A stretch of 64,000 nucleotides of DNA, from contig JBDRJN010000005.1 in assembly GCA_043814965.1 (NCBI GenBank), forward strand, positions 4,858 to 68,857, read 5' to 3'. Below the pieces are notes generated by a model. It was given only the letters and a program-made list of their open reading frames with translations, had not been told where the DNA came from and did no database searches. This stretch comes from Candidatus Omnitrophota bacterium (GTDB taxonomy: Bacteria > Omnitrophota > Gorgyraeia > Gorgyraeales > Gorgyraeaceae). Made by a program: the position numbers and the translations under genes. Position 1 is the stretch's first letter. Each line of letters begins with the position of its first letter. This document shows positions 15,008 to 40,674 of the stretch, piece after piece.

Positions 15008-16032
15008 ACCCTTAATACCTTTTCATATACCTCGTAAGTTTCTGAAACTGTCTTGTCCCATGAAAATTCTTTATGTCTATCTTTACCTTTTTTAATATAT
15101 CCATCTCTAATATTATTGTCGTTAAGTATGGTTTTTATACACGAACATAGCTCATCCCTATCTTCTGGAGAAAAAAACAAGGCAGCATTGCCTGCAATTT
15201 CAGGAATAGAGCCTCCGCTAGATGCTACTACAGGGCACCCAGCACCCATCGATTCCAATATCGGCAACCCAAACCCTTCATAAAGTGACGTATGTACAAA
15301 AAGATAGGCATTTCTGTAATACCAGCATAACAAATCATCATTACCTGTGACATGCCTAACTGCGCTCCTTATTCCTCTTCTATCAAGATCTCTTTTTTCT
15401 TCCTGTGAAAAAATTTCTCCCCCAAAGCATACTAGATCAAATTCTTTTTTTAAATTCAATTTATGGAAGATTTCGAGCAATATTTTAAAATTTTTATAAA
15501 AACCTCTTTTTCCTACATAAAAAATATAGGGCCTTTTTGGTTTATCTATACTAGAAGCCTTATGAGATATTAAATCGCTCGCAAGATACACTACAGAAAT
15601 TTGATCATCATCTATATTGTATATATTTTTTAAATCTTCCTTTGTCTTATCTGAAATACATATTATATGATCCGCACTTTTTATAGACTCTTTTTTCATT
15701 TTAATATGGCCTTCTTTGCCAGTATAATCAAGTAAACCCAATTCATGGATCATATCGAACACTGTCAAAACCATCCTGGCTTTTTCCCTTTCTATAGCGT
15801 TGTATGGGTAATAAGTCGGGTGGTATATATCATACCCTGATATCTTCAATCTGAGATTTAATAGCATGTTATTCAATCTAGTGAGTCTCCCGGGGGATAT
15901 ATTTAGGCCTTTAAACAGACCGACTTTTGCTTTATCGTATAATGACATTCTTCCGATGATCTCATGAAAATATCTTGATATGCCGCCATGTTTCTGCAGG
16001 GAAAAAATTGTACTATCGTAAAGTATTTTCAT
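15004..16032 (-). CDS. Glycosyltransferase family 4
   Basis: 'TSLYEGFGLPILESMGAGCPVVASSGGSIPEIAG'. Confidence 0.8.
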   Translation of the reverse strand: MKILYDSTIFSLQKHGGISRYFHEIIGRMSLYDKAKVGLFKGLNISPGRLTRLNNMLLNLRLKISGYDIYHPTYYPYNAIEREKARMVLTVFDMIHELGLLDYTGKEGHIKMKKESIKSADHIICISDKTKEDLKNIYNIDDDQISVVYLASDLISHKASSIDKPKRPYIFYVGKRGFYKNFKILLEIFHKLNLKKEFDLVCFGGEIFSQEEKRDLDRRGIRSAVRHVTGNDDLLCWYYRNAYLFVHTSLYEGFGLPILESMGAGCPVVASSGGSIPEIAGNAALFFSPEDRDELCSCIKTILNDNNIRDGYIKKGKDRHKEFSWDKTVSETYEVYEKVLRV

Positions 16033-17002
16033 TGTATCCTTGCCGGATTATACCATTGTTCAATATAAAATCCTTTAAATAATCCGCTGTGATTCTATGT
16101 CCATAATCAGAAAGATGGCAATCATCTAAAAATATGCTATATCTATCACTTTGAGCCTTAAAAACAGCTGTAAAATCCAAAAAATAATACCCGTTATCCT
16201 GGCAAAACCTGCCTAATCTTTTAGATGGCCCAAAGGCCTCTTCTCTTGAGCTATAAACCTGAAAATCGTATGGCAGATAAGCTACCAATACATTCGAAGT
16301 CTTTTTTATTTCGTCAAAAACCTCTTTAAGCTTAGTAAATTCTTTCTCCCACATTGCATCCTTGACATCCCACTCATCAAATGCCCAATTATTATAACCT
16401 GCTTTTAATTTTACATAATTATATCTTTCTGCCAAAGTAAGATATAAAACACTTTTTGCTAGACATGACTTAAGATTGAAGTTATTTTTCTTTTTTACTG
16501 TAATGCCTCTTATGGTCATGTTGCTTTCGTCAGATATATGTTCCATATGTTCAAATCCCTCGATATCATTTAAACCAAATTGATAGATTATTAAATCAGG
16601 GCTGAATTCCATAGCACCTTTAAGAGCTTTTAAATTGTCAGATGTAGTATTTCCACCCCTACCTAAATTCATAACCTCTACATCATAGGGTATATCTTGA
16701 AGATACCTCTCTAAAATTTTAGGAAAGATGTTTTCTAACTCAACCCTATATCCTTCAGTAACAGAATCTCCTATGCATGCTATCCTAAAAATATCGATTC
16801 TTTTATCTTTTATGAACTCGCGGTCTTTCCAACCACGCGAATTTTTTTCTAACGTATATCCTGCCATAATTCGAGAATCGTAAGAATTATAGGTTTTGGA
16901 TAGATGGAATATACGTGCAAAGGCTTCAGCAATTACAAGACTTAGAAGAATAGCAATAATACATATAGTTATACTCAAAAATATTGAACTATGTTTTCTC
17001 AT
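16013..17002 (-). CDS. SGNH/GDSL-family hydrolase (candidate polysaccharide O-acetylesterase or O-acetyltransferase), N-terminal membrane anchor
   Basis: A signal-anchor 'IFLSITICIIAILLSLVIA' is followed by block I 'IACIGDSVTEG', block III 'FGLND' and block V 'DDCHLSDYGH'. Confidence 0.65.
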   Translation of the reverse strand: MRKHSSIFLSITICIIAILLSLVIAEAFARIFHLSKTYNSYDSRIMAGYTLEKNSRGWKDREFIKDKRIDIFRIACIGDSVTEGYRVELENIFPKILERYLQDIPYDVEVMNLGRGGNTTSDNLKALKGAMEFSPDLIIYQFGLNDIEGFEHMEHISDESNMTIRGITVKKKNNFNLKSCLAKSVLYLTLAERYNYVKLKAGYNNWAFDEWDVKDAMWEKEFTKLKEVFDEIKKTSNVLVAYLPYDFQVYSSREEAFGPSKRLGRFCQDNGYYFLDFTAVFKAQSDRYSIFLDDCHLSDYGHRITADYLKDFILNNGIIRQGYNENTLR

Positions 17003-17020: not shown

Positions 17021-19504
17021 CTACCTTAGTTCAGCTAATAAAAAATCTCTCGATTTGCTACGCAATCTATCAATGCTTGAATGAACACTATAATAATCGA
17101 TCTTATTCATAAATACATCATAAGGTGAACCGTTCTCATCTATCATGCAATTTGACAATCCTAGGCCATCAAGAAAACTTCCCACTTTATTTTGCCGGTA
17201 AAGCGTTTTAAACATGCAGAACTCCTTAGAATTTAAAATAGAAAAAATCATACCATGATACATGGTAGTAACAACGCAAGCACTTTTTATAAAATATCCC
17301 AACCACTCAAAAGGACTCAAACTTGCTAAGCTGATATCACACCATGGACAATCATAACCTACTGAAATTGTTTTTTTCTTAATAAAACTTGCGTATTCTA
17401 AAATTTTTTGAATCATTTTATCGTTGAAAAAACCATACACTAGAATAAAATCTTCATATTTAGGCAAAATAGCCTCACTTTTAAAATCAACTAAAAAAAC
17501 AGGGTCTAATACAGTTTGTACTGGTTTAGGGCTTATGGAAGACATAATATTAGAAGAATTCTCATCCCTAACTGATATCCTGTCCAATCTGTTAAGCAAA
17601 TTCACGAGTTCTTTTGGAATGCATTCGTTATCTTCGACACTACCAAAACTTGCGGCATAAGATATGATACTTCTAGCTTTAAGAAATTTAGAGAAGTAAA
17701 CAGGGTCATAGCCTATCAATCTTGTCTTAAAATTCCAAACTTCATCACTTCCAATAATAATCTTATCAAAATAAAATTTTTTAAGTTTATTTTTACTAAA
17801 CACCCTCCTACTGTAATTTAATTGTTTTTGCGCTCTTTTGAATTTTGCAATCTTAACTACGTTCTTTAGGATTGTTCTTATAGAAAGTAGCGGATTTAAA
17901 AAAAACTTATACTCTCTAAAAGTAAACCCTATATCTTTATAATTAATAATAGTAGGTTCTAACCCATGTTTTTTTAAGAAACCTTGAAGGGCATAAGCTT
18001 GGAAAAAACCTCCATAGTTTATCCCATTGTGAAAAGTTAAAATACCTATATCAGAGTTATAGCTCTGTTTCTTGAAAGGCATTATTAATTTCACAATACT
18101 CTTTATCTTTTTGAAATACTTAATTAAGAAATGTAACCAATTTCTTTTACAACGGTATCTTTTATAAACTTTGTCTAAAGATTTTTCTAATACCTGGGCG
18201 TTATTTGGGTCAAACCTATGTTCTGTGTAAATAGAACGGCTTAATTCTCTTATCTCATCTCTTTGTTTCATATCCCAATTGCGGAAAAAATTTAAGCGCC
18301 TACTTGGAGAAAACCTTTTTCTAGGGATATAGGTATTTCTTTTCTTATCTTTGGAAAGAAGAAATAGCCTATGCCTCAGATCGCTCCTTTTTAAAAGCAT
18401 TACCCCTTTTTGCCTATCAGTTACTGCCTTCAAGGAAGCTCTATCTAGAATTATTTCTTCTCTTGAAGCTCCCTTTAATAGCAAATCTTTTATCATATTA
18501 GAACGGGCTATCACGAAGTTAGACCCTTTCGTGCCATAACTATACGGCTCTTCTATGGCATCTCCAAAAGAAACATCTGCTATCTCAGCTGTAATATCGT
18601 CGCAAAAATTACACGCATTTAATTTAAAATAATCCATCCCCCAGATCAAACTCATGCCTTCGCTCTGATAGACTTGACCTATTTTTTCTGTCCCTTCTTT
18701 AGTTTCATAAACAAATTCAAATCTATGATCAAGGTGATGCCGTTTTTCATCTTTTACTCTAAAAGCTACCCTTTTTATTTTTTCCGGATTTCTTTTTCCC
18801 AATCCACATAGGTATTCGGAAAAAAATTTACTTTTATTTTGACCACAAACTAAACCAACCAGGACCCTTATATTACTTTGCAGCTTAATATTGTGCAACA
18901 TAGCTAAGCGCAATGCCTTTAGCATGCATGGTAGCCCTACTATAGCATATGTTTTGTCACTATTTAAAATATCACTGATAATTGACGAAAGATTCACCGG
19001 GTAGTAATGAGACCTCGAGGCTTTTTGAATGCCTTCCAAGGAATTGATGACTTTATAAGAAAATAGCCTGTCTGGACCGTCTTCGGGGACTACACAACAT
19101 ATGCTATCTACAATATTTTCTTCTATTAGTTTTTCGAGTAAATATGTAGCCAAGCCTCCACTTGCACCTAAAGATCTATGGTTCCTTATGTTTGAAAAGC
19201 CGGCAAAAAGAGCCATATAAAACCCTGTTGTAGAATTATATCTTACGCTTTCATCTTTCTTAAATAACATCTTTCCTAAGATGCTTTCATTTTCATTGTC
19301 TTTCCAAAAAGGACAAACTTTTAGACATAAGCCGCATCTACTGCATTTACCATTAACCTCTACAGGATTGTATTCACCATAATTATTCCATTCTATCTTA
19401 AGTGCCTGCATAGGACATAACCCTGCACAAACCCCGCAGCCAACACATAATTCATTCCGCACAATAACATCACATACATTACGATAACTCAAAAAAATTG
19501 ACAT
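17021..19504 (-). CDS. Fusion: 2x[4Fe-4S] ferredoxin + coenzyme F420 hydrogenase/dehydrogenase beta-subunit-like (FrhB-like) domain + C-terminal polysaccharide pyruvyl transferase (CsaB/WcaK-like) domain
   Basis: The N-terminus carries 'CVGCGVCAGLCP' and 'CSRCGLCLKVCP', two CxxCxxCxxxCP clusters, then an FrhB-like region. The C-terminal third, 'IGILTFHNGINYGGFFQAYALQGFLKKHG...DEVWN', is typical of PS_pyruv_trans. Confidence 0.65.
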   Translation of the reverse strand: MSIFLSYRNVCDVIVRNELCVGCGVCAGLCPMQALKIEWNNYGEYNPVEVNGKCSRCGLCLKVCPFWKDNENESILGKMLFKKDESVRYNSTTGFYMALFAGFSNIRNHRSLGASGGLATYLLEKLIEENIVDSICCVVPEDGPDRLFSYKVINSLEGIQKASRSHYYPVNLSSIISDILNSDKTYAIVGLPCMLKALRLAMLHNIKLQSNIRVLVGLVCGQNKSKFFSEYLCGLGKRNPEKIKRVAFRVKDEKRHHLDHRFEFVYETKEGTEKIGQVYQSEGMSLIWGMDYFKLNACNFCDDITAEIADVSFGDAIEEPYSYGTKGSNFVIARSNMIKDLLLKGASREEIILDRASLKAVTDRQKGVMLLKRSDLRHRLFLLSKDKKRNTYIPRKRFSPSRRLNFFRNWDMKQRDEIRELSRSIYTEHRFDPNNAQVLEKSLDKVYKRYRCKRNWLHFLIKYFKKIKSIVKLIMPFKKQSYNSDIGILTFHNGINYGGFFQAYALQGFLKKHGLEPTIINYKDIGFTFREYKFFLNPLLSIRTILKNVVKIAKFKRAQKQLNYSRRVFSKNKLKKFYFDKIIIGSDEVWNFKTRLIGYDPVYFSKFLKARSIISYAASFGSVEDNECIPKELVNLLNRLDRISVRDENSSNIMSSISPKPVQTVLDPVFLVDFKSEAILPKYEDFILVYGFFNDKMIQKILEYASFIKKKTISVGYDCPWCDISLASLSPFEWLGYFIKSACVVTTMYHGMIFSILNSKEFCMFKTLYRQNKVGSFLDGLGLSNCMIDENGSPYDVFMNKIDYYSVHSSIDRLRSKSRDFLLAELR

Positions 19505-19510
19505 AGCTTC

Positions 19511-20389
19511 TCACTTCACTACTTCGATCAGTGCTACTGCACGTGCCGCCGCCGCATAGTCTGAATCAAAAGATCTTGTCGTATGTATATTGAAATATTC
19601 GACATCACGGCACCCTTCTTCTGTGCTTATATCCCAACCATTCTTTTTATATCTATAAAAAGATATAAAAATGCTAGCACAAGAAGAAAAAGATCTAAGC
19701 AAATCTTTAAGTAAAAGGCCATTAAACTGCTCAGCAAAAGGAGTACCGTTCCATTCTATTAATTGATGCTTACCAAAAACAACAGAGGCAAGGAACTTGC
19801 CACCTGGTCTCAACACTCTAATAAGCTCTTTCACCGCCTTCTCCGCTTCTAATCCGACCTTCCCTGCCGTATTCTTTCTTGTATATATCCTATTATCCAT
19901 GCCAACATGCCCCAATGTAGATATAGAACAAATCTCATCAAACCAATTATCTCTAAAAGGCAGCTCTCTTAAATCTCCATAATTATAAGAAATTCCTTTA
20001 TCTAAAAACGCATTCAATTCGGGAGCAAGAGTAAAAATTGTAATATTTTTATTACTAAGTTTTGGCATTTCTATTATTTCCTTAAAGTTAAGGACTGATC
20101 CAGCATCTAGTAATCTTGTCTTTTCAATCCCTAATCTAGAAAAAACCCAAGGGTACTCTATAACCCTTTCATCATATCCATGCCCATACCCATTTGGCAA
20201 ATGACCTGAAGAAAAAAATAACTCCATAAGATCTTCATTATTTAATGTTTCAACTATAAAATCAAACTTACTTGGTGTATACCCCCTAGACCAAGGTTTT
20301 TTCCCTTTCTTAATGTAGGCTGCTAGATCTTTCTGGCGTATTTTTTGTGCTATATAATTTTTAATAAACTCCGTTATTAGCCTTTTCAT
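19511..20389 (-). CDS. Probable class I SAM-dependent methyltransferase (Methyltransf_11/23-like)
   Basis: 'LLDAGSVLNF' and 'KAVKELIRVLRPGGKFLASVVFG' match the MTase post-motif II/III pattern. The motif I match is weak. Confidence 0.45.
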   Translation of the reverse strand: MKRLITEFIKNYIAQKIRQKDLAAYIKKGKKPWSRGYTPSKFDFIVETLNNEDLMELFFSSGHLPNGYGHGYDERVIEYPWVFSRLGIEKTRLLDAGSVLNFKEIIEMPKLSNKNITIFTLAPELNAFLDKGISYNYGDLRELPFRDNWFDEICSISTLGHVGMDNRIYTRKNTAGKVGLEAEKAVKELIRVLRPGGKFLASVVFGKHQLIEWNGTPFAEQFNGLLLKDLLRSFSSCASIFISFYRYKKNGWDISTEEGCRDVEYFNIHTTRSFDSDYAAAARAVALIEVVK

Positions 20390-21268
20390 TTAGTTACTCC
20401 CACCAGGTAGGACATCTTTGGTCCTTTTCCCAACAACTGTAAACAATTTTCGCTTTTCACCATAAAGCTTTTGATAATGATATGATACTGTGCTCTCTTC
20501 AAAACCAAGTATACCAAGAAATTTTACAATAACCTCTGGGGATAAAACCCACCAGGTATCTTTATGTGTAAGTGTCTTGAAATCTGGCAAAAACTCCATA
20601 TAAGGCACTTTATATTCATTCAAAACTTTTTTCTGAAAAAATATATTCCTCTTGATAGAAAGAATAAAACACTTAAAAAAAGAACCTGATGAGAAAGTAA
20701 GGGTATCTCTTGGAGCGATATCTGTCACTATAACAGTTTCTTTAACAAGGCTCAAAGTGCTTTGAAGCGCAAGGAATGGATTCTGCAGATGAAGCAAAAT
20801 ACAACAAAACGTAGCTATATCAACCTTACCGATCTCCTCTGGAATCTTGTAAACAGACCCGTAAACTGCTTTTGCCTTTGAATTGTATGCTTTATGCGCA
20901 TACCAGTATGAATTTTTAAGTCTCTTGCAATATTCTTTGAATTTTTGTATGTTTCCTCTATAATCGTATTGAGAAAACGGCACCATGTCCCACTCTTGAT
21001 TTTCGCCAATGTCATATGAGACTATTTCGGCTCCTCTTTTTTCCATTTCAAAACAAAGAAAACCACTTGCTGTACCTAACTCCAACACTCTCTTTGCCTT
21101 GAAATCAACGTTACCAAGATATTTGTCTACATTCCCTCTAAGATCCCATTTTCCAATAACAAGCCCATTGCCAGGGATATCCATATAATGGTAAAAATCA
21201 CACTCTTTAATATCTTCAACTGGGTATGGTTTTGCATAAATATTATTTTTAAAGTTTTCGATAGTCAT
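20390..21268 (-). CDS. Class I SAM-dependent methyltransferase
   Basis: 'RVLELGTASGFLCFEMEKRGAEIVSYDIG' (motif I plus acidic residue) and 'FCCILLHLQNP'. Confidence 0.55.
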   Translation of the reverse strand: MTIENFKNNIYAKPYPVEDIKECDFYHYMDIPGNGLVIGKWDLRGNVDKYLGNVDFKAKRVLELGTASGFLCFEMEKRGAEIVSYDIGENQEWDMVPFSQYDYRGNIQKFKEYCKRLKNSYWYAHKAYNSKAKAVYGSVYKIPEEIGKVDIATFCCILLHLQNPFLALQSTLSLVKETVIVTDIAPRDTLTFSSGSFFKCFILSIKRNIFFQKKVLNEYKVPYMEFLPDFKTLTHKDTWWVLSPEVIVKFLGILGFEESTVSYHYQKLYGEKRKLFTVVGKRTKDVLPGGSN

Positions 21269-21290
21269 ACCTAAACCTTTCTGTCGCCTT

Positions 21291-21980
21291 CTACATACAC
21301 TTTGAAGGATTATTTATCTCTGTATCTATTTTTTTTACTACACAAGCGGGATTACCTGCCACCATAGTATTAGATTCTACATCTTCAACTACAACTGATC
21401 CAGCTGCTATAATTGCATTATCTCCTATTGCAACTCCCCGGAATATAGCTGAATTAAAACCTATCCATACTCGTTTACCAATGCGAATTGGTGCAGACGG
21501 AACTATAGGCCTCGTACCATGTGTATCACCCATTTGAATTCGCCAATCTTGTTCTCTTAAATATGGGTCCAGGGGATGTCCTCTTGTATCGATAATATGG
21601 ACTCCATGTGCGATCATAGTTAGTTGCCCAATCTCTATATAATTTTCTGCGCTAATTATAGTATCGTCTCCTATATAGACTTCATCACCGATAAAAATGC
21701 AACCATTTCCTCTAGTGCCACACCTGAGTAACCCTCTACAAAACACTCTATTACCAAGTCTTATATCTTCACGCCTACCACTATTTACACACCATGCATT
21801 TGGTCCTATACGACAGTCTTGTCCCATAATACTATTTTTCTTAAATACTTCCCATGCTAACTGTGCTTTTTGTGTCTCAAACCATTTAATAAAAATACTA
21901 ATGAACGGAAAAAGAACAGAGAGCCTTTTGTCCTCAAAAATCTTTCCCCTCGCATAAGCATGAGACGAATCTCTTGGCAT
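21291..21980 (-). CDS. Left-handed beta-helix (hexapeptide-repeat) acyl/acetyltransferase
   Basis: Repeated hexapeptides 'IFIGDEVYIGDDTIISAENYIEIG' and 'IGKRVWIGFNSAIFRGVAIGDNAIIAAGSVVVEDVESNTMVAGNPA'. Confidence 0.7.
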   Translation of the reverse strand: MPRDSSHAYARGKIFEDKRLSVLFPFISIFIKWFETQKAQLAWEVFKKNSIMGQDCRIGPNAWCVNSGRREDIRLGNRVFCRGLLRCGTRGNGCIFIGDEVYIGDDTIISAENYIEIGQLTMIAHGVHIIDTRGHPLDPYLREQDWRIQMGDTHGTRPIVPSAPIRIGKRVWIGFNSAIFRGVAIGDNAIIAAGSVVVEDVESNTMVAGNPACVVKKIDTEINNPSKCM

Positions 21981-22050: not shown

Positions 22051-23766
22051 TCATGAAAGACCAATCCAATCGTAATTAAGAAGATGGCGATATTTATTCT
22101 TTATCTGAATTTGAAACATCTTATACATCCTGTCCTCAGAGAATTTTGTATTCTGAACCATCTCCTTTGCATCCATCCAAAGACGCTTTTCGTCATAATC
22201 GCCAAAAGCACTAAATACAGGGCTAAGATCGCTTGTCACCTTAGACAAAACTAAATAAATATACGAAAAAACCTTTGCCTTTTCAACCTCTATTTTGCTC
22301 AATGACTTAAAAGTGTGTACATTTTTTAGGATCGAAAAATACTCGTCCTTTGTCTTTGGTTCATGGGTAAACCCCAAACCAGAATATATAGTTTCTCCGC
22401 CTATGACGCAAGGAATGCCAAAAACAGAATATTCATATCCAGCACTGCCATGCGTTGTCAATATAACATTCACTATAGATGGCAAAGAACCTGTATTAAC
22501 ATTTTCTGGAAAAAGCTTGATATGTTTACAATTTTTTGCCAACCTTTTATATTCTTTCTTCGCTGTTGTCTTAACATCATTTATCTCATCCCATGGATGG
22601 GGTTTTATTAACCAATTAACATGATCAAGGGCTTTAGCTTCCATTAACGTGACTCGAAGCCATGTTAATGGATCCTTGAATAAACTCCAGCTATTCGCAA
22701 ATACCACTTCTGTCATCATATTTGACATTACGCCAACAATAGGCCGATCAACATCCCATCCAAACCTGTCACATAACTCCTGACGTGAGATAACAGGATT
22801 CTCTTTTTTAAAAGCATCATAACTAACATCACTATCAATCTGTATATATTCTGACTTGAATCTTTTATTTATATATTTTCCGCCTGAACAAACTGCTTCT
22901 ATTCTATGACTCTGCCATACATATTCAAAAAGCTTGCGTTCAAACCTGCCAACATCTTTAAAAGCTCTATCTATACCTTTAAATCTACATACTGTAAAAC
23001 TCTTTGGCTTGCCGCCTCTAGAATACACTACGGTTCCATTTTTCAAAGCAACTTGATATACGATTGCTCCAGGCATAAACTGCCTATCAGATTGGATCAA
23101 AACAGGAAACGCGTTACAATCAAACAATTTTTTAAGATAATCCTGGTAGCATAGCGCTTCTCTCATATAACTAATAAAAACTGGCTGAATGCTGTCAGCT
23201 GTCCCGAAACCAGATGTTCTCAAATAAGTATCGTAAACTATCTTTCCTATATGGACATCTTCCAGCTTAAGATTCAAAAAATCATCAATATTTTTCAACT
23301 CTCCAAATATGTGTACAGCTTTAGAAGTATAGCGTATAAAATCCAGCGCACTATTATTTCTATCGCTCAGGTAGAAAAATTTACTAATACCGTAGGATTT
23401 GAATAAGAGTTCAAGCTTTCTGTCTCGTTTATGTAAAAGCGCTGCTCCTTGAATGCCATAAACATCCATAACATATCTTCCAATAATTAAATTCAGTAAA
23501 ACATACCCCATGTGATTGACAAGGCCTTCGATCAAAACATACTGTTGGCCATTTTTAATCACTTTTTTATCAACTTGCTGCCATAAAAAAGCATTGGTAT
23601 TCAAAAACTCCTGAAAAGCTTTTTCAATATCATCATTTTCTTTATCTGCTTTTGACAAAATATTAGGTCTGCTTTTAAGTTGTGCTATGCGTTTGGGTAG
23701 CGACATTAACAATAGAACAAAGTACTTAAACAGTAAGAAATAGGTTCTTAAATTATATTTAATCAT
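22051..23766 (-). CDS. GT-B-fold capsule/teichoic-type polysaccharide biosynthesis protein (KpsC/KpsS- or TagF-like). It is a candidate glycosyl- or nonulosonate-transferase
   Basis: C-terminal 'HVNWLIKPHPWDEIND...SIVNVILTTHGSAGYEYSVFGIPCVIGG' shows the HP catalytic motif and the SS/TT-x-gfE-x-G-P pattern shared by Capsule_synth and Glyphos_transf families. The precise family is uncertain. Confidence 0.4.
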   Translation of the reverse strand: MIKYNLRTYFLLFKYFVLLLMSLPKRIAQLKSRPNILSKADKENDDIEKAFQEFLNTNAFLWQQVDKKVIKNGQQYVLIEGLVNHMGYVLLNLIIGRYVMDVYGIQGAALLHKRDRKLELLFKSYGISKFFYLSDRNNSALDFIRYTSKAVHIFGELKNIDDFLNLKLEDVHIGKIVYDTYLRTSGFGTADSIQPVFISYMREALCYQDYLKKLFDCNAFPVLIQSDRQFMPGAIVYQVALKNGTVVYSRGGKPKSFTVCRFKGIDRAFKDVGRFERKLFEYVWQSHRIEAVCSGGKYINKRFKSEYIQIDSDVSYDAFKKENPVISRQELCDRFGWDVDRPIVGVMSNMMTEVVFANSWSLFKDPLTWLRVTLMEAKALDHVNWLIKPHPWDEINDVKTTAKKEYKRLAKNCKHIKLFPENVNTGSLPSIVNVILTTHGSAGYEYSVFGIPCVIGGETIYSGLGFTHEPKTKDEYFSILKNVHTFKSLSKIEVEKAKVFSYIYLVLSKVTSDLSPVFSAFGDYDEKRLWMDAKEMVQNTKFSEDRMYKMFQIQIKNKYRHLLNYDWIGLS

Positions 23767-25154
23767 GTCTGACGAAATCCTCTGAAGTTTAAGTTTTTTT
23801 CGTTATATAGTTTTTTGGCTTGTTCTGTGCACAATGACTGTCTTTTTTTAAAAAAATTGCCTATTAGCCTTGTATTTGCGTCCAATAGGCAAGAATAAAA
23901 TTCTGCATCGCTTAGATCTGTAAAATTCACTGTCAATAAATCAGAGTTTAGATGCTTATTTTCATAAAAATCTTCCACATCTTTTAATAATCCTTTTTCT
24001 ATAGCATAATAGTATAATGGACTGCCAGGATATGGAGTGACTGGCCTAATTGTCCTTAACTGAGAATCATCGCTATATCTCAGCAAAAATTCCAACCCTT
24101 TTTGTAAAGTTTCTTTTGTTTCACCAATATTTCCAAATATTATATTAAGGCCTGGGCTTATTCCAGAGTCAATTGTATTTCTCACTCCTTCATGAATAAT
24201 TTTAACCGTAAGCCCTTTTTTCATTATATCTAGGGCCTCTTGGTCCATAGATTCAATACCGTAATTAATAAACACGCAACCTGCTTTTTTCATCAATTTT
24301 AAAACTTTTGGTTTTGCAAAATTCAGCCTTCCATTGCAATCCCACCTGAATTTTACACCCGAATCAATTATCGCTTCGCATAATTCAATCGTTCTTTTTT
24401 CGGAACTCATTAAAAGATCGTCTGAAAATTCAATAGCTGAGATGTTATAGTCTTTTTGCAAAAGCTTAATTTCCTCTAAGATATTATCGGCACTCCTTGG
24501 CCTAAAACCTTTGTCCATCCTATAACAAAAATTACATTTAAAGATACATCCTCTTCCAGATAAAACAGGCATATGCCTATCGTTATTGGCAAAACCTTTT
24601 ACAGGCCTCATGAGCGCATAATGATCTATAGGAAACAGCTCATATGCTGGGAAATCTATGTCGTCAATATTTTGAATAAGCGGTCTTGGTAGGTTGATTA
24701 CACATTTCCCGGAATTATTATAAGCTATGCCCTTTATCAAAGAAAGATCTTTTCTGCTCTCCAGGGCTTCTACAATCTCAAGGATAGTTATCTCTCCTTC
24801 GCCAATAACTATCGCATCAGCTTGTGTTTTTTTCATAAAATAGCTAGGTTCAGGGGCTGAGCCATGGCCTCCTAGAATATAAAAAGGTCTGTTCTTTGAT
24901 TGATTGATGGCATCCGATAAAAGCAATAATTTTTTATACTGGTAATATCCGCCGATTATACTCAAGCCTACTATATCAAAATCCATATTGTTAAGATAAT
25001 TCTTTAGATGAAGCTCCGACCAGTGATAAACATCCTGGTTATATATTGTTACCTCATGCCCATTTTCTTTCAAAACCCTGGCAATATATGCAATACCCTG
25101 GGGAAAATATGACACAAGTGAATCATTATCATAAACGATCAGTAATATTTTCAT
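23763..25154 (-). CDS. Cobalamin-binding (class B) radical SAM enzyme
   Basis: An N-terminal B12-binding Rossmann fold 'KILLIVYDNDSLVSYFPQGIAYIARVLKENGHEVTIY' precedes the radical SAM CxxxCxxC motif 'SGRGCIFKCNFCY'. Confidence 0.8.
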   Translation of the reverse strand: MKILLIVYDNDSLVSYFPQGIAYIARVLKENGHEVTIYNQDVYHWSELHLKNYLNNMDFDIVGLSIIGGYYQYKKLLLLSDAINQSKNRPFYILGGHGSAPEPSYFMKKTQADAIVIGEGEITILEIVEALESRKDLSLIKGIAYNNSGKCVINLPRPLIQNIDDIDFPAYELFPIDHYALMRPVKGFANNDRHMPVLSGRGCIFKCNFCYRMDKGFRPRSADNILEEIKLLQKDYNISAIEFSDDLLMSSEKRTIELCEAIIDSGVKFRWDCNGRLNFAKPKVLKLMKKAGCVFINYGIESMDQEALDIMKKGLTVKIIHEGVRNTIDSGISPGLNIIFGNIGETKETLQKGLEFLLRYSDDSQLRTIRPVTPYPGSPLYYYAIEKGLLKDVEDFYENKHLNSDLLTVNFTDLSDAEFYSCLLDANTRLIGNFFKKRQSLCTEQAKKLYNEKNLNFRGFRQT

Positions 25155-25870
25155 TTGAGTGTTTTTTGTAAATCTGGAGATTTTTTATTAACTATAAATT
25201 CTGCGAATTTGAAATCCAGTTCATCGTCTATATCAAGTGATGGAATACGCCCCATTAAATAATAAGTAGTTTTCGGAGTATAAAAGGTTCTGTATTTTAA
25301 AAAATCTGAACATCTCATTATATAAATAGCTCCATTAACGATAAATAATTTCGATAAATCCTGCTGGCTAGAATCGGCAATAAACTCTTTCAAAAACCCG
25401 CTTGCCTGAATAGTTTTCGTCAAACAGGGATTTTTGTTTATCCTACCGATTGAAATTAATGATAGCGCTTTTTTAAAATTAACAAATTTTTTAATAGCTT
25501 TATCTAAATAGGCATGGTCTCTAAATGGAGAGGTAGGTTGTAACAGACAAAAAAAATCATACTGTTTGTTTTCCTTATTATTTAACCAATTAAGGGCATG
25601 AATAATAAACTCACTGCTTGGTGAAATGTCTGTCGCAAATTTAGCGGGTCTTTTAAATGGGACCTCAATATTATATTTTTTAGCTATAGAAACGACTTCG
25701 TCTGAATCCGTAGAAACAATTATTCTATCTATATATTCTGACTTCCTGGCCGCTTCTATAGTATATGCTATTAAAGGTCTACCTCCTAAGTCCCTCGTAT
25801 TCTTCCCAGTCACTCTTTTTGACCCTTTTCTTGCAGGGATCAAAGCTAACAATGTTTTTTTTCTATACAT
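25151..25870 (-). CDS. CMP-nonulosonic acid synthetase (acylneuraminate cytidylyltransferase family; NeuA/LegF/PseF-like)
   Basis: 'ALIPARKGSKRVTGKNTRDLGGRPLIAYTIEAARKSEYIDRIIVSTDSDEVVSIAKKYNIEV' matches the CTP_transf_3 N-terminus. The start was chosen at the internal ATG (MYRKK), which removes the overlap with the upstream gene. The six-frame ORF extends to 25960. Confidence 0.8.
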   Translation of the reverse strand: MYRKKTLLALIPARKGSKRVTGKNTRDLGGRPLIAYTIEAARKSEYIDRIIVSTDSDEVVSIAKKYNIEVPFKRPAKFATDISPSSEFIIHALNWLNNKENKQYDFFCLLQPTSPFRDHAYLDKAIKKFVNFKKALSLISIGRINKNPCLTKTIQASGFLKEFIADSSQQDLSKLFIVNGAIYIMRCSDFLKYRTFYTPKTTYYLMGRIPSLDIDDELDFKFAEFIVNKKSPDLQKTLK

Positions 25871-25895
25871 AGCAACCTGACGTCTGTTTAACTGA

Positions 25896-26957
25896 CTATA
25901 ACTTATTAAAGACTTTTTTGTACTCTTCCCATTGGCCAATATCCACGTAATCTCTTCCATTTATAGGGTACATCATGACTTTTTTATTGTTTTCTATAAG
26001 TTTTTTCACCAAATCTGTCATATCAAAATATGAATCTTTCGGTATAAACTGTAAGGATTCCTTGTTGAGTATGTAGACTCCGGCATTTACCGTAAAAGTG
26101 TACTCCGGCTTTTCTAAAATAGATTCGACTTCTCCGCCTTCCTTAAACTTTACTATCCCATAAGGAATTTTATAGTGCTGAATAGGGGATAAAATTGTCA
26201 TTACTGATCTCTGTTCTTTATGAAAACTCACCACGTCTTCAAAATCAGCTTTAACAATAACATCGCAATTAGAGACTATGAATAGATCTCCTATTTTGTT
26301 TTCTAAAAGCTTTAAACTACCTGCTGTTCCTAAAAATTCCTTTTCTACTAGATATTTAATCTCATAATCTCTTTCTATTCCATTAAAATATGACTTGATT
26401 ATCTCGCTTTTATGGTTTAACGTTATAAAATATTCATTGGCGCCCTGCTGTTTGAATTCCTCTATGATTATCTCGATGATAGGCTTATCGCCTATAGGGA
26501 TTAAGGGCTTAGGGAGGACCTTGGTAAATGGGTCTAACCTTGAACCTTTTCCACCTGCCATAATAACCACGGGTATATTGATCTTGCCATTATTGGTTAT
26601 TTTGGTTTTATCTTCAAAAAATACCTCGTTCCATGTAACAAAATCTACAACCTTATTTCCTTCATCTAATATTGGGAGTAAATCTATCCTATCCCTAATG
26701 AATATTTTTCTTACCAGATCTATTGAATAATTTTCTTTTTTGATATAATTAGGCTTCCTGTTATAGACTTCGCTGATATTGTTTTCCAAGCTTTTGCCGG
26801 TCAATATATAACGTCTGATATCCCCATCTGTTATAGTCCCCAATAATCTATTCTGGTCGTCTATCACCAGCAGAACTTTTTTCCCGCCTTCATTTAGACT
26901 TTTTAAAGCGTCTTTTATAGACTTTGATTGATAAATTAGAACATCCTTTTGGAACAT
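25896..26957 (-). CDS. CBS-domain nucleotidyltransferase (PtmE-like sugar-1-phosphate guanylyl/nucleotidyl-transferase)
   Basis: An N-terminal CBS pair 'LLGTITDGDIRRYIL' precedes the NTP_transferase motif 'VIMAGGKGSRLDPFTKVLPKPLIPIGDKPIIE'. Confidence 0.75.
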   Translation of the reverse strand: MFQKDVLIYQSKSIKDALKSLNEGGKKVLLVIDDQNRLLGTITDGDIRRYILTGKSLENNISEVYNRKPNYIKKENYSIDLVRKIFIRDRIDLLPILDEGNKVVDFVTWNEVFFEDKTKITNNGKINIPVVIMAGGKGSRLDPFTKVLPKPLIPIGDKPIIEIIIEEFKQQGANEYFITLNHKSEIIKSYFNGIERDYEIKYLVEKEFLGTAGSLKLLENKIGDLFIVSNCDVIVKADFEDVVSFHKEQRSVMTILSPIQHYKIPYGIVKFKEGGEVESILEKPEYTFTVNAGVYILNKESLQFIPKDSYFDMTDLVKKLIENNKKVMMYPINGRDYVDIGQWEEYKKVFNKL

Positions 26958-26959
26958 TT

Positions 26960-28138
26960 CTATCCTCTCTGTTTAAAGTCTATATCAAAAAAAGATTTTT
27001 TTAAACTATTGGGGACATCATACCTTTTTAATATATACTTGATTTTTTTTGCAGTATTGCCATTGCCATATGGGTTAGTTATGCTTTTAAGGGATCTTTT
27101 AAATTTTTTGGAATATATCCTTTTTATAGCTTTCCTTATATCTTCTTTTTGCGGTTTGCAATCTATAACGTTCTTCGCTTTAATCCTTCCCTTCTGTCTA
27201 TCCCCAATATTGACCGCTCCTATTTTGAAACTCGGGGCTTCTATAATAGCGCTGGATGAATTTCCGACTACAGCATCCATAAATCGCATTGTTGATAAAT
27301 ATAAGGTCTGGCCCATCGATGTAAACGCTTTAGCCTTATCTGGATTTTTAGACACATAATTATCTATCATTTTATTAATGATCCTGCCGTGGGTATCAGC
27401 ATTTGATCCTGTGAAAATTATATTTGTATCATTTAACTCATCTAGCGCAGCAATCAAGTTCTGGAATTGCTTGCCTGCTGTATCGTCTTCTAGAGTAACC
27501 GGATGAAAAGTAACTAACAAATTATGCTTATTCAACTTAAAACCTAATTTCGGCTCTAATGCTTTTCTGGTTAATAATTTCAGCTGCTTTATATTATCTA
27601 TTCCTATCGCTCCGACATTAAAAACTCTCTTAGGCGCTTCGCCTAATTGAATTATACGTTTTTTATACTTTTTAATGGCAGTAAAATGCAAATTACTCAT
27701 TTTAGTTATAGAATGTCTTATCGCCTCGTCAATGGCCCCAAAAGTAGCCTCACCTCCATATAAATGAGCTATAGGAATCCTTGAAACCATCGCTGCTATA
27801 ACTGCTGATAACATTTCAAATCTGTCTCCGATAATCACAATAATATCAGGTTTCAACCTATTATAAGCTTCACTTAAACTTATTAATCCTAATCCCATAG
27901 ACTTACTCAAACCTATAGGCGTATCAGAACTTAATAAGATCTCTATTTTTTCATTTATTTTAAAGCCATCTTTTTCCAACTCTTTATAAGTTAAATTAAA
28001 TTCCGGGGACATATGCATTCCAGAAACAATGAGCTGAAGCTGTAATTCTTTATCTTTTTTTATCTCATCCATTAAAGGCTTTAAAAGTCCGTATTCAGCC
28101 CTAGAACCTGTGAATATACAAATTTTTCTCTTCACCAT
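26960..28138 (-). CDS. UDP-N-acetylglucosamine 2-epimerase (hydrolysing), NeuC/LegG family
   Basis: 'KICIFTGSRAEYGLLKPLMDEIKKDKELQLQLIVSGMHMSPEFNLTY', 'IGDRFEMLSAVIAAM' and 'HLYGGEATFGAIDE'. Confidence 0.8.
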   Translation of the reverse strand: MVKRKICIFTGSRAEYGLLKPLMDEIKKDKELQLQLIVSGMHMSPEFNLTYKELEKDGFKINEKIEILLSSDTPIGLSKSMGLGLISLSEAYNRLKPDIIVIIGDRFEMLSAVIAAMVSRIPIAHLYGGEATFGAIDEAIRHSITKMSNLHFTAIKKYKKRIIQLGEAPKRVFNVGAIGIDNIKQLKLLTRKALEPKLGFKLNKHNLLVTFHPVTLEDDTAGKQFQNLIAALDELNDTNIIFTGSNADTHGRIINKMIDNYVSKNPDKAKAFTSMGQTLYLSTMRFMDAVVGNSSSAIIEAPSFKIGAVNIGDRQKGRIKAKNVIDCKPQKEDIRKAIKRIYSKKFKRSLKSITNPYGNGNTAKKIKYILKRYDVPNSLKKSFFDIDFKQRG

Positions 28139-28800
28139 GCCTCCTTTAGTATCATAAAGCTTTCCGCATACTTATATCCAGCTGTTGCTCCTCTGAATAT
28201 AGCTAAAGCTTTTATATTCTTCAGGCTTCTTGGAAATGGGTGCTGGTTAATTTCAGTCTTAAAAATTTTAATAATATCGATCTTTTTATCCAAATAATCA
28301 GTGATATCCACGAAATAATTAGGAATAAAAGCTATTTCTTTTAAGCTTGGAGCAAATTCAGTCTCGCTAATTATTTCCATCGCCAAAATTTTCTTAATGA
28401 ATGGGCAACGAAATTTCTTAGCAGAACTCCATGCTGCTTCAGAAATTATCCTATGATCACTATGTGTGTCCCCCATGAACGGCAAATAAAGTATATTTGG
28501 TTTGACTTGCTGCAAAATTTCTGAGATTTTTTTTATTACTTTATTTATAGGCCACCTCTCTACTTCTATTGTAGGAATTCCCAATTTATAAATACCATCG
28601 AAGCCATACTTTTTTGTGGCAATCTTTATTTCTCTTTCTCTTTGCAAAATCTTTTTTCTGCTAAAACCTTTCTTTTTCTTCATATCTGTGGCGATAAGCC
28701 AATAAACTTTGTCTCCATTCATCTTGTGCCTAAGTATTGTTCCGCCACAACCCAAAGTTTCATCATCAGGATGAACTGCTAATACTAAAACTTTATTCAT
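28132..28800 (-). CDS. PIG-L/LmbE-family N-acetyl-sugar deacetylase
   Basis: 'VLAVHPDDETLGCGGTIL' contains the HPDDE zinc motif. 'GDTHSDHRIISEAA' contains the second His motif. Confidence 0.7.
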   Translation of the reverse strand: MNKVLVLAVHPDDETLGCGGTILRHKMNGDKVYWLIATDMKKKKGFSRKKILQREREIKIATKKYGFDGIYKLGIPTIEVERWPINKVIKKISEILQQVKPNILYLPFMGDTHSDHRIISEAAWSSAKKFRCPFIKKILAMEIISETEFAPSLKEIAFIPNYFVDITDYLDKKIDIIKIFKTEINQHPFPRSLKNIKALAIFRGATAGYKYAESFMILKEAW

Positions 28801-29714
28801 AATAAATACTCCCCAATTTTTGGAAATTCATTAAATTCATGTTTTGTCAAAATAACTGCATTGTTATAACATTTCACTAGTATCTTATTATCGGTTATAT
28901 CCAACACCTTGCCGCTTTCGATATTATCTTGAGTTAACTCTACTTCTTTTGCTTCCCAAATCTTAATATTAACATCATTGTAAAAAATATGCGCCCCTAT
29001 ATATGGCTTTGTCAATGCTCTTACAAGATTATAAACCCCTCTGCTAGTCATTCTAAAATCTATCTTCCCGTCTTCCTCTCTTCTTTTCCGCCAAAAATTC
29101 GCTTTTGTATTGTCTTGGGAAATCCTGCAATAAGTCTTATTTTGTAGCTTTGGCAAAAAATCTCCCATTTGGGTTAAAGCTGTATTTGTAATCTTATTAT
29201 AGAGAGACTTTGCATTGTCTTCATAGGTTATATCTACATATTCTTGGCTTAAAAGATCTCCACCATCAATGCTATCATCTATAAAGAAAAACGTAGAAGC
29301 AGTTCTCTCTAGACCAAGGGCTAAGGCCCAAACAATAGGATGCCTGCCTCTGTTCTGAGGTAGGATTGCAGGATGAAATCCTACAATCCCCATCGGTGCG
29401 CTATATATAATTTCTTTTTTTAAGATCTGTGAAAATCCAAAACAGAAAATTATGTCCGGACTTAACTTTCTAATCCATTCTATATTATCCTGAGAATTGA
29501 TATCGGTAACATATCTGCAGGGAATACCCTTATGGCTACAAAGATCCGACAAATCTGAAAAATCGGCGTTAAAGTCAGATTTTTCTTTGGTTAACACCCC
29601 GACAACATTTGCCTTATAGAATATCAATTGTTTCAGCATGCTTTCACCGAATTTAACTGTTCCTATAAAAACTATTCTCATTAGTTTATTTTTCAAAACA
29701 TGATTTTTCGGCAT
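28797..29714 (-). CDS. Formyltransferase (Fmt/ArnA-N-like). It probably acts as a sugar N-formyltransferase using N10-formyl-THF
   Basis: 'MRIVFIGTVKFGESMLKQLI', 'IIFCFGFSQILKKEI' and 'VGFHPAILPQNRGRHPIVWAL' (the HxSLLPxxRG-type catalytic loop). Confidence 0.7.
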   Translation of the reverse strand: MPKNHVLKNKLMRIVFIGTVKFGESMLKQLIFYKANVVGVLTKEKSDFNADFSDLSDLCSHKGIPCRYVTDINSQDNIEWIRKLSPDIIFCFGFSQILKKEIIYSAPMGIVGFHPAILPQNRGRHPIVWALALGLERTASTFFFIDDSIDGGDLLSQEYVDITYEDNAKSLYNKITNTALTQMGDFLPKLQNKTYCRISQDNTKANFWRKRREEDGKIDFRMTSRGVYNLVRALTKPYIGAHIFYNDVNIKIWEAKEVELTQDNIESGKVLDITDNKILVKCYNNAVILTKHEFNEFPKIGEYLL

Positions 29715-32396: not shown

Positions 32397-32423
32397 TTTA
32401 TCTCTCCGTTCAGACTCTAAAAG

Positions 32424-33194: not shown

Positions 33195-33220
33195 ATTTTT
33201 GGTTTCTTTGTATACTGTGT

Positions 33221-38295: not shown

Positions 38296-38301
38296 TTTTT
38301 A

Positions 38302-40674
<2,373 letters not shown>

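Follow-up and report, generated by a model that had tools for sequence, protein, structure and literature searches.

The window, the whole stretch of 64,000 nucleotides analysed here from a Candidatus Omnitrophota bacterium, encodes a protein of 827 residues in which an FrhB-like reductase module is fused to a PF04230 pyruvyl transferase (PvT) domain. Its most likely role is to decorate a sugar with an O-lactyl (1-carboxyethyl) ether, within the polysaccharide encoded by the surrounding ABC-transporter-type locus; to this reading we assign, from sequence comparisons, a probability of about 0.6. With a little less assurance, we favor the view that it would be the first single-polypeptide lactyl-ether synthase, combining enolpyruvyl transfer by the PF04230 domain with reduction in situ by a fused, ferredoxin-driven FAD/three-[4Fe-4S] module of the FrhB family. 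Lactyl ethers are acidic, antigenic groups found on many O-antigens, capsules and exopolysaccharides, and the FrhB-like genes that stand beside PvT genes are widely mis-annotated as F420 hydrogenase subunits. In the full-text literature that we searched, no gene assignment for lactyl ethers outside peptidoglycan came up, nor any role for FrhB-like genes located in polysaccharide loci; a 2017 paper by Knirel et al. on E. coli O69/O146 may contain a prior proposal.

The gene is one uninterrupted open reading frame from ATG to stop (ORF listing of the window), and every Pfam domain in it scores above cut-off. The fusion described in the first-pass annotation is thus genuine as encoded, and the PF04432/PF04422 plus PF04230 architecture that it proposed to look for is found in full. 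The protein is organized as follows.

17021..19504, minus strand: fusion ORF, FrhB-like reductase module plus PF04230 transferase, stop codon included (ORF listing, Pfam)
19307..19465, minus strand: ferredoxin-like N-terminal domain, residues 14-66, with two CxxCxxCxxxCP motifs (Fer4 and dicluster Pfam matches; eight Cys invariant in 32 homologues)
18977..19207, minus strand: FrhB_FdhB_N domain, residues 100-176 (PF04422, 40.7 bits, cut-off 22)
18446..18955, minus strand: FrhB_FdhB_C domain, residues 184-353, with a third predicted [4Fe-4S] site (PF04432, 90.1 bits, cut-off 23.3)
18056..18445, minus strand: clade-specific C-terminal extension of the reductase module, residues 354-483 (present in free-standing homologues, covered by no Pfam model)
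17024..18055, minus strand: PF04230 pyruvyl transferase domain, residues 484-827, short 'GILTFH…NYG' subfamily (Pfam, BLAST identities)

The two ferredoxin motifs are formed by C20/23/26/30-P31 and C54/57/60/64-P65, and Fer4, Fer4_7 and Fer4_10 all exceed their gathering cut-offs in the region of residues 14-66, as in bacterial-type 2x[4Fe-4S] ferredoxins. PF04422 and PF04432 follow in this order, both above gathering score, which places the module in the FrhB family. Within the latter domain, C193, C220, C298 and C301 (C…C…CxxC) are spaced like Cys104/134/192/195, the [4Fe-4S] ligands of the FrhB core (PMC3591093). Since these four residues are also invariant, three [4Fe-4S] clusters are predicted in the reductase module. 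Both CxxCxxCxxxCP motifs initially noticed in the protein are present, but the initial total of two clusters has to be raised to a predicted three. Poor conservation of the Cys ligands had been named as a possible refutation; all 12 cysteines of the module are invariant in our alignment of 32 homologues (29-56% identity). The same alignment shows conservation of G116-G117 and S165/Y167/P169, compatible with a putative cofactor site, and, in residues 354-480, of Q365, K372, K396, R397 and S422. The redox module covers about 480 residues, not the 350 first attributed to it, because free-standing FrhB-like homologues of 454-502 residues align to residues 6-471 of the query. Among GTDB species representatives, the best match to the window protein is 49% identical. 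In the PDB (phmmer), the relatives recovered with the N-terminal half were all of FrhB or ferredoxin type, and no solved relative was found for the transferase half.

In the transferase half, the PS_pyruv_trans model matches residues 496-765 with 106 bits (cut-off 25.3), over positions 1-276 of the 280 of the profile. The domain is 75-57% identical to free-standing proteins of 345 residues; with the PvT of E. coli O146 it shares 30% identity along its full length (E 9e-30). Its similarity to E. coli WcaK is limited to 24% identity over 130 residues (BLASTP, E 6e-4), and it scores 23.2 bits on the CsaB equivalog TIGR03609, for a cut-off of 213. The CsaB/WcaK-type label that it had received therefore does not apply in the narrow sense; by these comparisons, the domain falls in a short subfamily that is distant from both enzymes.

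In the reaction that we propose, the PF04230 domain would first take an enolpyruvyl group from PEP and attach it to a hydroxyl group on one of the sugars of the lipid-linked glycan in the cytoplasm, and would stop at, or release, the enol ether instead of closing a ketal. The N-terminal module would then reduce the C=C bond of the enol ether to give the lactyl ether. Electrons would come from a low-potential donor, for example ferredoxin, and would travel from the two N-terminal [4Fe-4S] clusters to the FrhB-core cluster, then to the flavin and, as hydride, to the substrate. Covalent linkage would allow the labile enol ether to be passed straight to the reductase. Donor, acceptor, product and electron source are all inferred.

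The association of the two modules extends well beyond the window. In species-representative genomes, an FrhB-like gene lies beside a PF04230 gene in 62 of 80 cases and is fused to it in 3, so that the two are together in 65 of 80. This agrees with the earlier remark that FrhB-like genes often adjoin PvT genes, and provides the comparison of fused and split arrangements that had been called for. Fusions occur as FrhB-PvT (P0183, P0196, P0200, P0203, P0238, L047), as PvT-FrhB (P0128, P0247, P0259) and as PvT-FrhB-PvT (P0209, L074, L081); these are independent fusions, in both orders. The widespread two-gene module is already visible in databases, and the window protein, fused and located in a polysaccharide locus, is its single-chain variant.

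Furthermore, the position next to the transferase can be occupied by other reductases. A nitroreductase is fused to a PvT 44% identical to that of the window in P0154, and a nitroreductase gene overlaps the gene of a PvT 39% identical to it in L088. In E. coli O146 and K. quasipneumoniae the order is nitroreductase–wzx–PvT, and in Proteus terrae it is MurB paralogue–wzx–PvT. This MurB paralogue matches Pfam FAD_binding_4 and reaches 152 bits on the MurB model (cut-off 259). Overall, the PvTs paired or fused with a nitroreductase or the MurB paralogue are 28-44% identical to the window PvT, and three unrelated reductase families are interchangeable in the slot beside related transferases. In one further protein, P0149, the N-terminal 320 residues match no Pfam family.

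Where structures are available, such gene pairs coincide with lactyl ethers. The E. coli O146 antigen contains lactyl-glucose, and O112ac, O149 and O156 are the only serogroups for which pyruvate ketals are listed (PMC7685785). Among 5,426 E. coli genomes, a DNA search detected the O146 nitroreductase and PvT genes in 17, each of which is an O146 strain. Other E. coli serogroups with lactyl groups are O58, O124, O69 and O150. Among 79 Klebsiella capsule types, nitroreductase genes are confined to K22 and K37, and K66 alone has an 'F420 hydrogenase' gene; a type-specific PvT gene accompanies the reductase gene in all three (PMC4616057 supplement). GlcA-Olac is listed for K22 and K37 and Glc-Olac (beta-D-Glcp-Olac) for K66 (PMC6856556 Table 1), and no pyruvylation is recorded for these three types despite their PvT genes. 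For FrhB-like genes, the link to lactyl ethers rests on one structurally characterised case, K66, whose genes are known here by annotation. These genotype-structure correlations suggest that reductase-paired PF04230 members end in a lactyl ether, not a ketal. Reduction to a lactyl-type ether, one of two possibilities raised by the first-pass annotation, thereby gains support of a correlative kind, from the nitroreductase and MurB-like partners as well as from the O146, K22/K37 and K66 gene pairs, which go with lactyl and without ketal.

We also considered the short PvT subfamily as a mark, by itself, of lactyl formation, and rejected it: FrhB-like genes pair about equally with WcaK-like (38) and short-type (35) transferases, and the PvT subfamily alone therefore does not predict the product. 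This distribution bears on the main alternative, namely that the transferase carries out ordinary ketal pyruvylation, that the redox step is unrelated (acting, for example, on a keto-sugar or another substituent), and that the fusion merely ensures co-expression. The PF04230 enzymes characterised so far do form ketals (review PMC6801904), half of the FrhB-like genes have WcaK-like partners, and the locus encodes many further tailoring enzymes. However, the pairing is specific to PF04230, with the frequency and the two fusion orders given above, and a co-expression role does not sit well with three unrelated reductase families filling one slot beside related transferases. In addition, the Klebsiella types with both PvT and reductase have lactyl and no ketal, whereas the other types, ketal-bearing ones included, are devoid of such a reductase (nitroreductase in 2 of 79, 'F420 hydrogenase' in 1 of 79). 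We therefore regard this alternative as rather unlikely.

The gene neighborhood fits a polysaccharide locus. Besides GT4/GT2 enzymes, an ABC-2 exporter, a Wza-like protein and many other tailoring enzymes, it includes the following genes.

19511..20389, minus strand: Methyltransf_11 gene, upstream, 6 nt from the fusion ORF (Pfam; same order in L003 and L086)
21291..21980, minus strand: hexapeptide-repeat acyltransferase gene (Pfam; synteny in L001, L002, L086 and L087)
16013..17002, minus strand: GDSL/SGNH gene, downstream (Pfam; L084 and L085 gene order)

The first two belong to a recurrent block made of Hexapep, methyltransferase, FrhB-like and transferase genes, and in P0211 the FrhB-like module is itself fused to Methyltransf_11. 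The GDSL/SGNH gene is missing in the closest syntenic relatives (L084 and L085), in which the transferase is directly followed by GT4-GT2. In L084, whose PvT is 71% identical to that of the window, the methyltransferase gene is immediately followed by the transferase gene, and the FrhB-like gene is absent from between them; the transferase can thus evidently exist without an adjoining reductase.

The source of the reducing power could be viewed differently, the module being F420-dependent, with F420H2 as hydride donor to the flavin and with Fe-S clusters that send electrons elsewhere. The family name points this way, the nearest solved relatives of the N-terminal half are F420 enzymes (8riu_B and Fsr 7np8, together with FpoF/FrhB models), and many FrhB-like homologues occur in methanogens. 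Against this, the module scores far below the equivalog cut-offs (PRK09325, 45 vs 269; FpoF, 38 vs 475; frhB TIGR03289, 27.7 vs 331.5). The source organism, a diderm bacterium, encodes an LptD-like protein as well as GGDEF proteins, and homologues are also found in Bacteroidota, Bacillus, Sphingomonas and Klebsiella K66. None of these taxa is known to make F420. Moreover, the FrhB fold can run on ferredoxin, as illustrated by BciB, an FAD/Fe-S enzyme annotated frhB that reduces a vinyl group with ferredoxin electrons (PMC4836224). F420 dependence is accordingly given little credence here.

The two halves of the protein meet at the following junction.

18047..18091, minus strand: fusion junction, residues 472-486, …KLIMPFKKQSYNS followed by DIGILTFH… (sequence; alignments with split relatives L001-L003, L084 and L085)

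At this place there is neither an in-frame stop nor a spacer with a ribosome-binding site, and alignment with L001-L003, L084 and L085 shows TCT (Ser484) at the position of the relatives' transferase ATG. The ATG of Met474 was rejected as an internal transferase start because the same ATG occurs within the reductase tail of L085, and because no ribosome-binding site goes with it. A missed stop between two genes, which the first-pass annotation had put forward as a way to overturn the fusion, is thus not what the junction contains. In L001, L002, L003, L085 and L086, the FrhB-like gene is directly followed by the transferase gene. The fusion is a recent event: relatives with a 69-75% identical PvT keep two separate genes while the PvT start codon is gone here.

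The same observations could be read as an assembly or sequencing artefact, or as a very recent pseudo-fusion, with halves that are separate in the cell and a function that is that of the split pair. This particular fusion is known from one sequence only, an exact look-up in public assemblies did not find an identical 827-residue protein, and the relatives, down to 75% PvT identity, all have two separate genes. In L085, the FrhB-like and transferase genes overlap by ATGA, so that a small net indel would suffice to fuse them. On the other hand, neither the transferase ATG nor the ribosome-binding spacer upstream of it is left, although a single erroneous indel would have spared them, and similar fusions exist in several lineages. 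Hence, we hold this reading to be improbable.

Finally, redox-gated pyruvylation, the other possibility raised at first, in which the Fe-S/flavin module would be a sensor switching the transferase and leaving its product chemically unaltered, is disfavored to the point of being very improbable: Fe-S clusters often serve as redox sensors and a covalent fusion would fit allosteric control, but Fe-S-free nitroreductase and MurB-like partners replace the FrhB-like module in the same slot, which therefore indicates a catalytic reductase more than a sensor, and the module retains the whole FrhB catalytic core together with a wire of three predicted clusters, as is typical where electrons are delivered to a flavin.

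If lactyl-ether formation by the fusion protein is confirmed, the thousands of unexplained genes named 'F420 hydrogenase beta subunit' in the polysaccharide loci of bacteria and archaea would encode enzymes that reduce enol ethers on glycans, and a large set of wrongly named genes would acquire a function. Lactyl-ether glycans could then be predicted from genomes by the presence of PF04230 with any of the three reductase types, and tools that predict serotypes in Klebsiella, E. coli, Proteus and Vibrio could recognize lactyl substituents from the sequence alone. The fused protein would also be a handy one-protein reagent for tests of the chemistry and for glyco-engineering.

Among known systems, WcaK, CsaB and Pvg1 share with the window protein Pfam PF04230 and PEP as presumed donor, but they need no reductase, form 4,6- or similar ketals and are of very low similarity (measured for WcaK and CsaB). 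FrhB, FpoF and the N-terminal half of Fsr possess the same FrhB_FdhB_N and FrhB_FdhB_C domains and the same four-Cys cluster pattern as the N-terminal half, and FpoF and Fsr have in addition an N-terminal ferredoxin domain like that of the window protein. The latter differs by its extra C-terminal extension of about 130 residues, its polysaccharide locus, its bacterial host and its doubtful use of F420.

The proposed logic is that of MurA/MurB, where enolpyruvyl is transferred from PEP to a sugar hydroxyl and then reduced by a flavoenzyme to a lactyl ether, and in Proteus terrae the neighbors of wzx and of the gene for a related PF04230 transferase include a MurB paralogue. However, MurA is not a PF04230 protein, and MurB is an NADPH-dependent FAD_binding_4 enzyme without Fe-S clusters. 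Their substrate is UDP-GlcNAc and not a polysaccharide repeat unit, and neither is homologous to the halves of the window ORF.

The nitroreductase and PF04230 pairs are modules of the same kind, with a dedicated flavin reductase, transferases related to the window PvT (30% identity for O146, 39% for L088, 44% for the fused P0154) and, where products are known (O146; K22/K37), O-lactyl sugars. They differ in having a reductase of the FMN nitroreductase fold without Fe-S and, in enterobacteria, wzx between the two genes. That such a partner can perform the chemistry is indicated by the C-terminus of FbiB, of nitroreductase fold, and by the stand-alone nitroreductases of F420 biosynthesis, which convert the enolpyruvyl group of dehydro-F420-0 to lactyl (PMC8498797); the reaction is therefore feasible for the type of partner fused to related transferases, although these enzymes act in another pathway, on another substrate, and have no homology to the FrhB-like module.

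In Klebsiella K66, HG203 ('coenzyme F420 hydrogenase') and wcqF (pyruvyltransferase) go with a capsule containing beta-D-Glcp-Olac and no pyruvate. This locus is the only one that we found with FrhB-like and PF04230 genes and a structurally characterised polysaccharide; the likeness is one of annotation, and the two genes are separate, unlike in the window protein. For the role of the N-terminal module, the best precedent would be the 8-vinyl reductase BciB, likened to it by description. BciB acts on a chlorophyll precursor and has no transferase partner. Its reaction is the reduction of a C=C bond, which its host carries out without F420.

The 827-residue protein is encoded by an uninterrupted ORF, from ATG to stop, in the ORF listing of the window (17021..19504, minus strand), and all its Pfam domains score above their curated cut-offs. 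Their placement shows that the first-pass annotation, which had described a fusion of a redox module with a pyruvyl transferase, was right in substance.

Pfam features of the 827-residue ORF (minus strand)
Residues 14-66: two ferredoxin-type 4Fe-4S motifs
Residues 100-176: FrhB_FdhB_N
Residues 184-353: FrhB_FdhB_C
Residues 496-765: PS_pyruv_trans (PF04230)

The redox module is longer than the 350 residues first assigned to it, at about 480 residues. The 120 best word-index matches are without exception free-standing FrhB-like proteins, 454-502 residues long, with a query coverage of 44-58%, and in an exhaustive search the best FrhB-like match, P0003 (485 residues, 55% identity), aligned over residues 6-471. 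The assignment of the transferase to the CsaB/WcaK type had to be given up: its score against the CsaB equivalog is 23 bits, where 213 is the cut-off, and it matches E. coli WcaK over 130 residues only (24%), so that it is a PF04230 member orthologous to neither.

Lactyl substitution of glucose is listed for E. coli O146 in a review of O-antigens, in which pyruvate ketals are restricted to O112ac, O149 and O156 (PMC7685785). In strain ATCC 8739, the O146 cluster includes genes for a nitroreductase and a PF04230 protein; the two were found in only 17 of the 5,426 complete genomes of E. coli searched, every one of them O146. Of 79 capsule loci of Klebsiella, just three have such a reductase gene: a nitroreductase gene in K22 and in K37, and a “coenzyme F420 hydrogenase” gene in K66, each together with a type-specific pyruvyl transferase (PMC4616057 supplement). 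Such transferase genes occur in K8, K22, K37 and K66, whose capsules are devoid of pyruvylation (PMC4616057), and a later compilation gives β-D-GlcpA-Olac in K22 and K37 and β-D-Glcp-Olac in K66 (PMC6856556). The three reductase-bearing K types would coincide by chance with the three lactyl-bearing ones once in 79,079, by our own arithmetic, which assumes just three lactyl types as read from the flattened table of PMC6856556. The FrhB-like reductase, as opposed to the nitroreductase, is tied to the lactyl ether by K66 alone, the gene of which was compared by annotation. Our literature search returned no paper assigning genes to lactyl-ether formation in polysaccharides. Set against these non-pyruvylated capsules, an ordinary ketal transferase accompanied by an unrelated redox step is improbable.

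The nearest relatives of either half of the protein are separate proteins; the top transferase homologues (P0265-P0267, 345 residues) are 75, 71 and 69% identical. At three split loci (L001, L002 and L003), the FrhB-like gene is followed, after a gap of 15-31 nt, by the transferase gene, and at a fourth (L085) they share an ATGA overlap. A missed stop between two genes was looked for by aligning the window junction, …KLIMPFKKQSYNS-DIGILTFH…, with split relatives. The junction contains neither a stop codon nor a ribosome-binding-site spacer, and TCT occupies the position of the transferase ATG. Because an ATG and a ribosome-binding site would survive one sequencing indel, yet both are missing here, we regard the fusion as genuine and recent in evolutionary terms, with a probability of about 0.9; an artefactual fusion, whatever the function, is correspondingly doubtful. 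No identical 827-residue protein is on record, this fusion being known from one sequence only.

Conservation of the cysteine ligands was checked in an alignment of 32 redox-module homologues (29-56% identity), in which 12 cysteines are invariant. Eight of them form the two CxxCxxCxxxC motifs already described. The other four (C193, C220, C298 and C301, arranged as C…C…CxxC) are spaced like the [4Fe-4S] cluster ligands of FrhB, Cys104/134/192/195 (PMC3591093). Hence, the two motifs stand, but the total of two clusters does not: three clusters and a flavin are predicted. HMM and ligand tests place the N-terminal half in the FrhB family, as an orthologue of neither FrhB nor FpoF. Dependence of the module on F420 is unlikely, given equivalog scores far below the cut-off, a bacterial host and homologues in taxa not known as F420 producers.

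The frequency of this pairing was surveyed with one genome per species. The 80 best loci of an FrhB-like profile scan were kept, and their ORFs were then searched with transferase profiles.

Where the PF04230 gene lies with respect to the FrhB-like one (80 best loci)
Directly downstream, same strand: 44
Directly upstream, same strand: 16
Adjoining, opposite strand: 2
Fused in one ORF: 3
At 0.4-1.7 kb: 7
Not found: 8, at least 3 of these loci being cut within 300 nt downstream

The claim that FrhB-like genes often lie beside pyruvyl transferase genes is thus confirmed, in hosts belonging to Planctomycetota, Chloroflexota, methanogens, Bacteroidota, Bacillota, Actinomycetota and Proteobacteria. 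The partners are 38 WcaK-like and 35 short-type transferases, so that the transferase subfamily is not diagnostic. Nine fusions to PF04230 were found within the top 150 cluster representatives of the exhaustive search: the reductase comes first in five and the transferase in three, and in one the reductase is flanked by two transferases. The last architecture, shown by protein P0209, is that of giant PvT–FrhB–PvT ORFs of 1,378-1,455 residues (PvT, pyruvyl transferase), as in Loktanella gaetbuli (L074:2108-6472) and an uncultured Rhodobacteraceae (L081:2354-6487). In the fusions with the reductase first, as in the window protein, the transferase subfamily differs from that of the window protein, so that the latter arose by an independent fusion event. 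The fused architecture is already visible in databases, uncharacterised, and the window protein adds a new variant.

Transferases 28-44% identical to that of the window have other reductase partners. In P0154, a nitroreductase domain is fused to a 44%-identical transferase; in L088, a nitroreductase gene overlaps that of a 39%-identical one. In E. coli O146 and K. quasipneumoniae, the nitroreductase gene lies two genes from the transferase, with wzx in between. In an O-antigen-type locus of Proteus terrae, the genes directly after that of a divergent MurB paralogue (L091:3415-4503; 152 bits on the MurB model, cut-off 259; matching Pfam FAD_binding_4) are wzx-like and PF04230 transferase genes, and this transferase shares 48% identity with its E. 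coli O146 counterpart. In peptidoglycan synthesis, it is MurB that reduces the enolpyruvyl ether, giving a lactyl ether. That three unrelated flavin reductases fill one slot beside related transferases favours generic catalytic reduction of the transferase product and speaks against redox sensing, making redox-gated pyruvylation very unlikely. Of the two functions first proposed, lactyl-ether formation is thus favoured and gating is not.

Chemical precedents exist for such a reduction. In FbiB, a nitroreductase-fold domain acts on dehydro-F420-0, reducing its enolpyruvyl group to a lactyl group (PMC8498797), and BciB, annotated frhB, is a FAD/Fe-S enzyme taking electrons from ferredoxin for the reduction of a vinyl group (PMC4836224). 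Partner exchange, solved structures and these precedents converge on the function of the pair. We infer that the PF04230 domain would move enolpyruvyl from PEP onto a sugar hydroxyl. Electrons, presumably from ferredoxin, would pass through the two ferredoxin-type clusters and the core cluster to the flavin, which would then reduce the enol ether, yielding an O-(1-carboxyethyl) sugar. In a fused protein, the hydrolysis-prone intermediate would be handed over and ketal closure blocked.

All window ORFs of credible size (1-64000) are on the minus strand. GC skew is negative throughout (-0.13 to -0.27), and G+C is about 33% in the glycan locus, rising to about 40% past 44 kb. Numerous GT4 and GT2 glycosyltransferases, two GT-C (PMT_2) proteins and several methyltransferases are encoded in the locus, and the window also encodes an LptD-like protein and two GGDEF proteins.

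Other features of the window (minus strand)
19511-21980: Hexapep–Methyltransf_11 block, recurring in L003, L086 and L001
22051-23766: 571-residue ORF without Pfam match
23763-25154 and 41353-42783: two B12-binding radical-SAM enzymes, inside the glycan locus
25151-36971: nonulosonic-acid pathway set
36973-39132 and 42798-45653: ABC-2 exporter pair (Wzm/Wzt-like, 440-residue ATPase) and 951-residue Wza-like protein with several SLBB domains

The host is, judging from its genes, a diderm bacterium with a glycan built in the cytoplasm, where an Fe-S flavoenzyme could act on it. The exporter pair and the Wza-like protein point to ABC-transporter-dependent export. The nonulosonic-acid set (NeuC-like 2-epimerase, cytidylyltransferase, NeuB, PglD-like acetyltransferase, DegT aminotransferase and dehydratase), with the adjacent HisH/HisF-like amidotransferase pair, formyltransferase and PIG-L deacetylase, suggests a heavily N-acylated legionaminic- or pseudaminic-type sugar. 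The radical-SAM pair may perform C-methylation or other radical sugar tailoring.

A gene order recurs across loci: Hexapep acyltransferase, at times a radical-SAM/SPASM gene, Methyltransf_11, FrhB-like, transferase. In P0211 (683 residues), Methyltransf_11 replaces the transferase as fusion partner of the FrhB-like module; with the recurrent order, this suggests that the methyltransferase may share a substituent or sugar target. The 571-residue ORF may belong to the same conserved block: a 531-residue protein of L003, likewise without Pfam match, is homologous to it (24% identity, E 2e-15) at the equivalent relative position. Similar-sized proteins without Pfam match lie directly upstream of the Hexapep gene in L002 (517 residues) and L086 (580 residues), and near the module in L001 (587 residues, opposite strand) and L087 (526 residues). 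In L084:1-1165, the second-closest transferase (71% identical) directly follows a Methyltransf_11 homologue with no FrhB-like gene between, and the downstream genes (GT4-GT2-GT4-GT4-PMT_2) are syntenic with the window. This natural variant without a reductase gene beside the transferase, which counts among the weak points of the lactyl-ether reading, is worth comparing; its contig ends within the methyltransferase gene, and a reductase farther upstream is possible.

On its own, the window protein is one more fusion. It makes two long-unanswered questions testable: how lactyl ethers of bacterial glycans arise, and what role the “F420 hydrogenase” genes of polysaccharide loci play. In its way of working it is likened to MurA/MurB, being homologous to neither; its nearest functional relatives would be the uncharacterised pairs of a reductase and a PF04230 protein in lactyl-bearing O-antigen and capsule loci.
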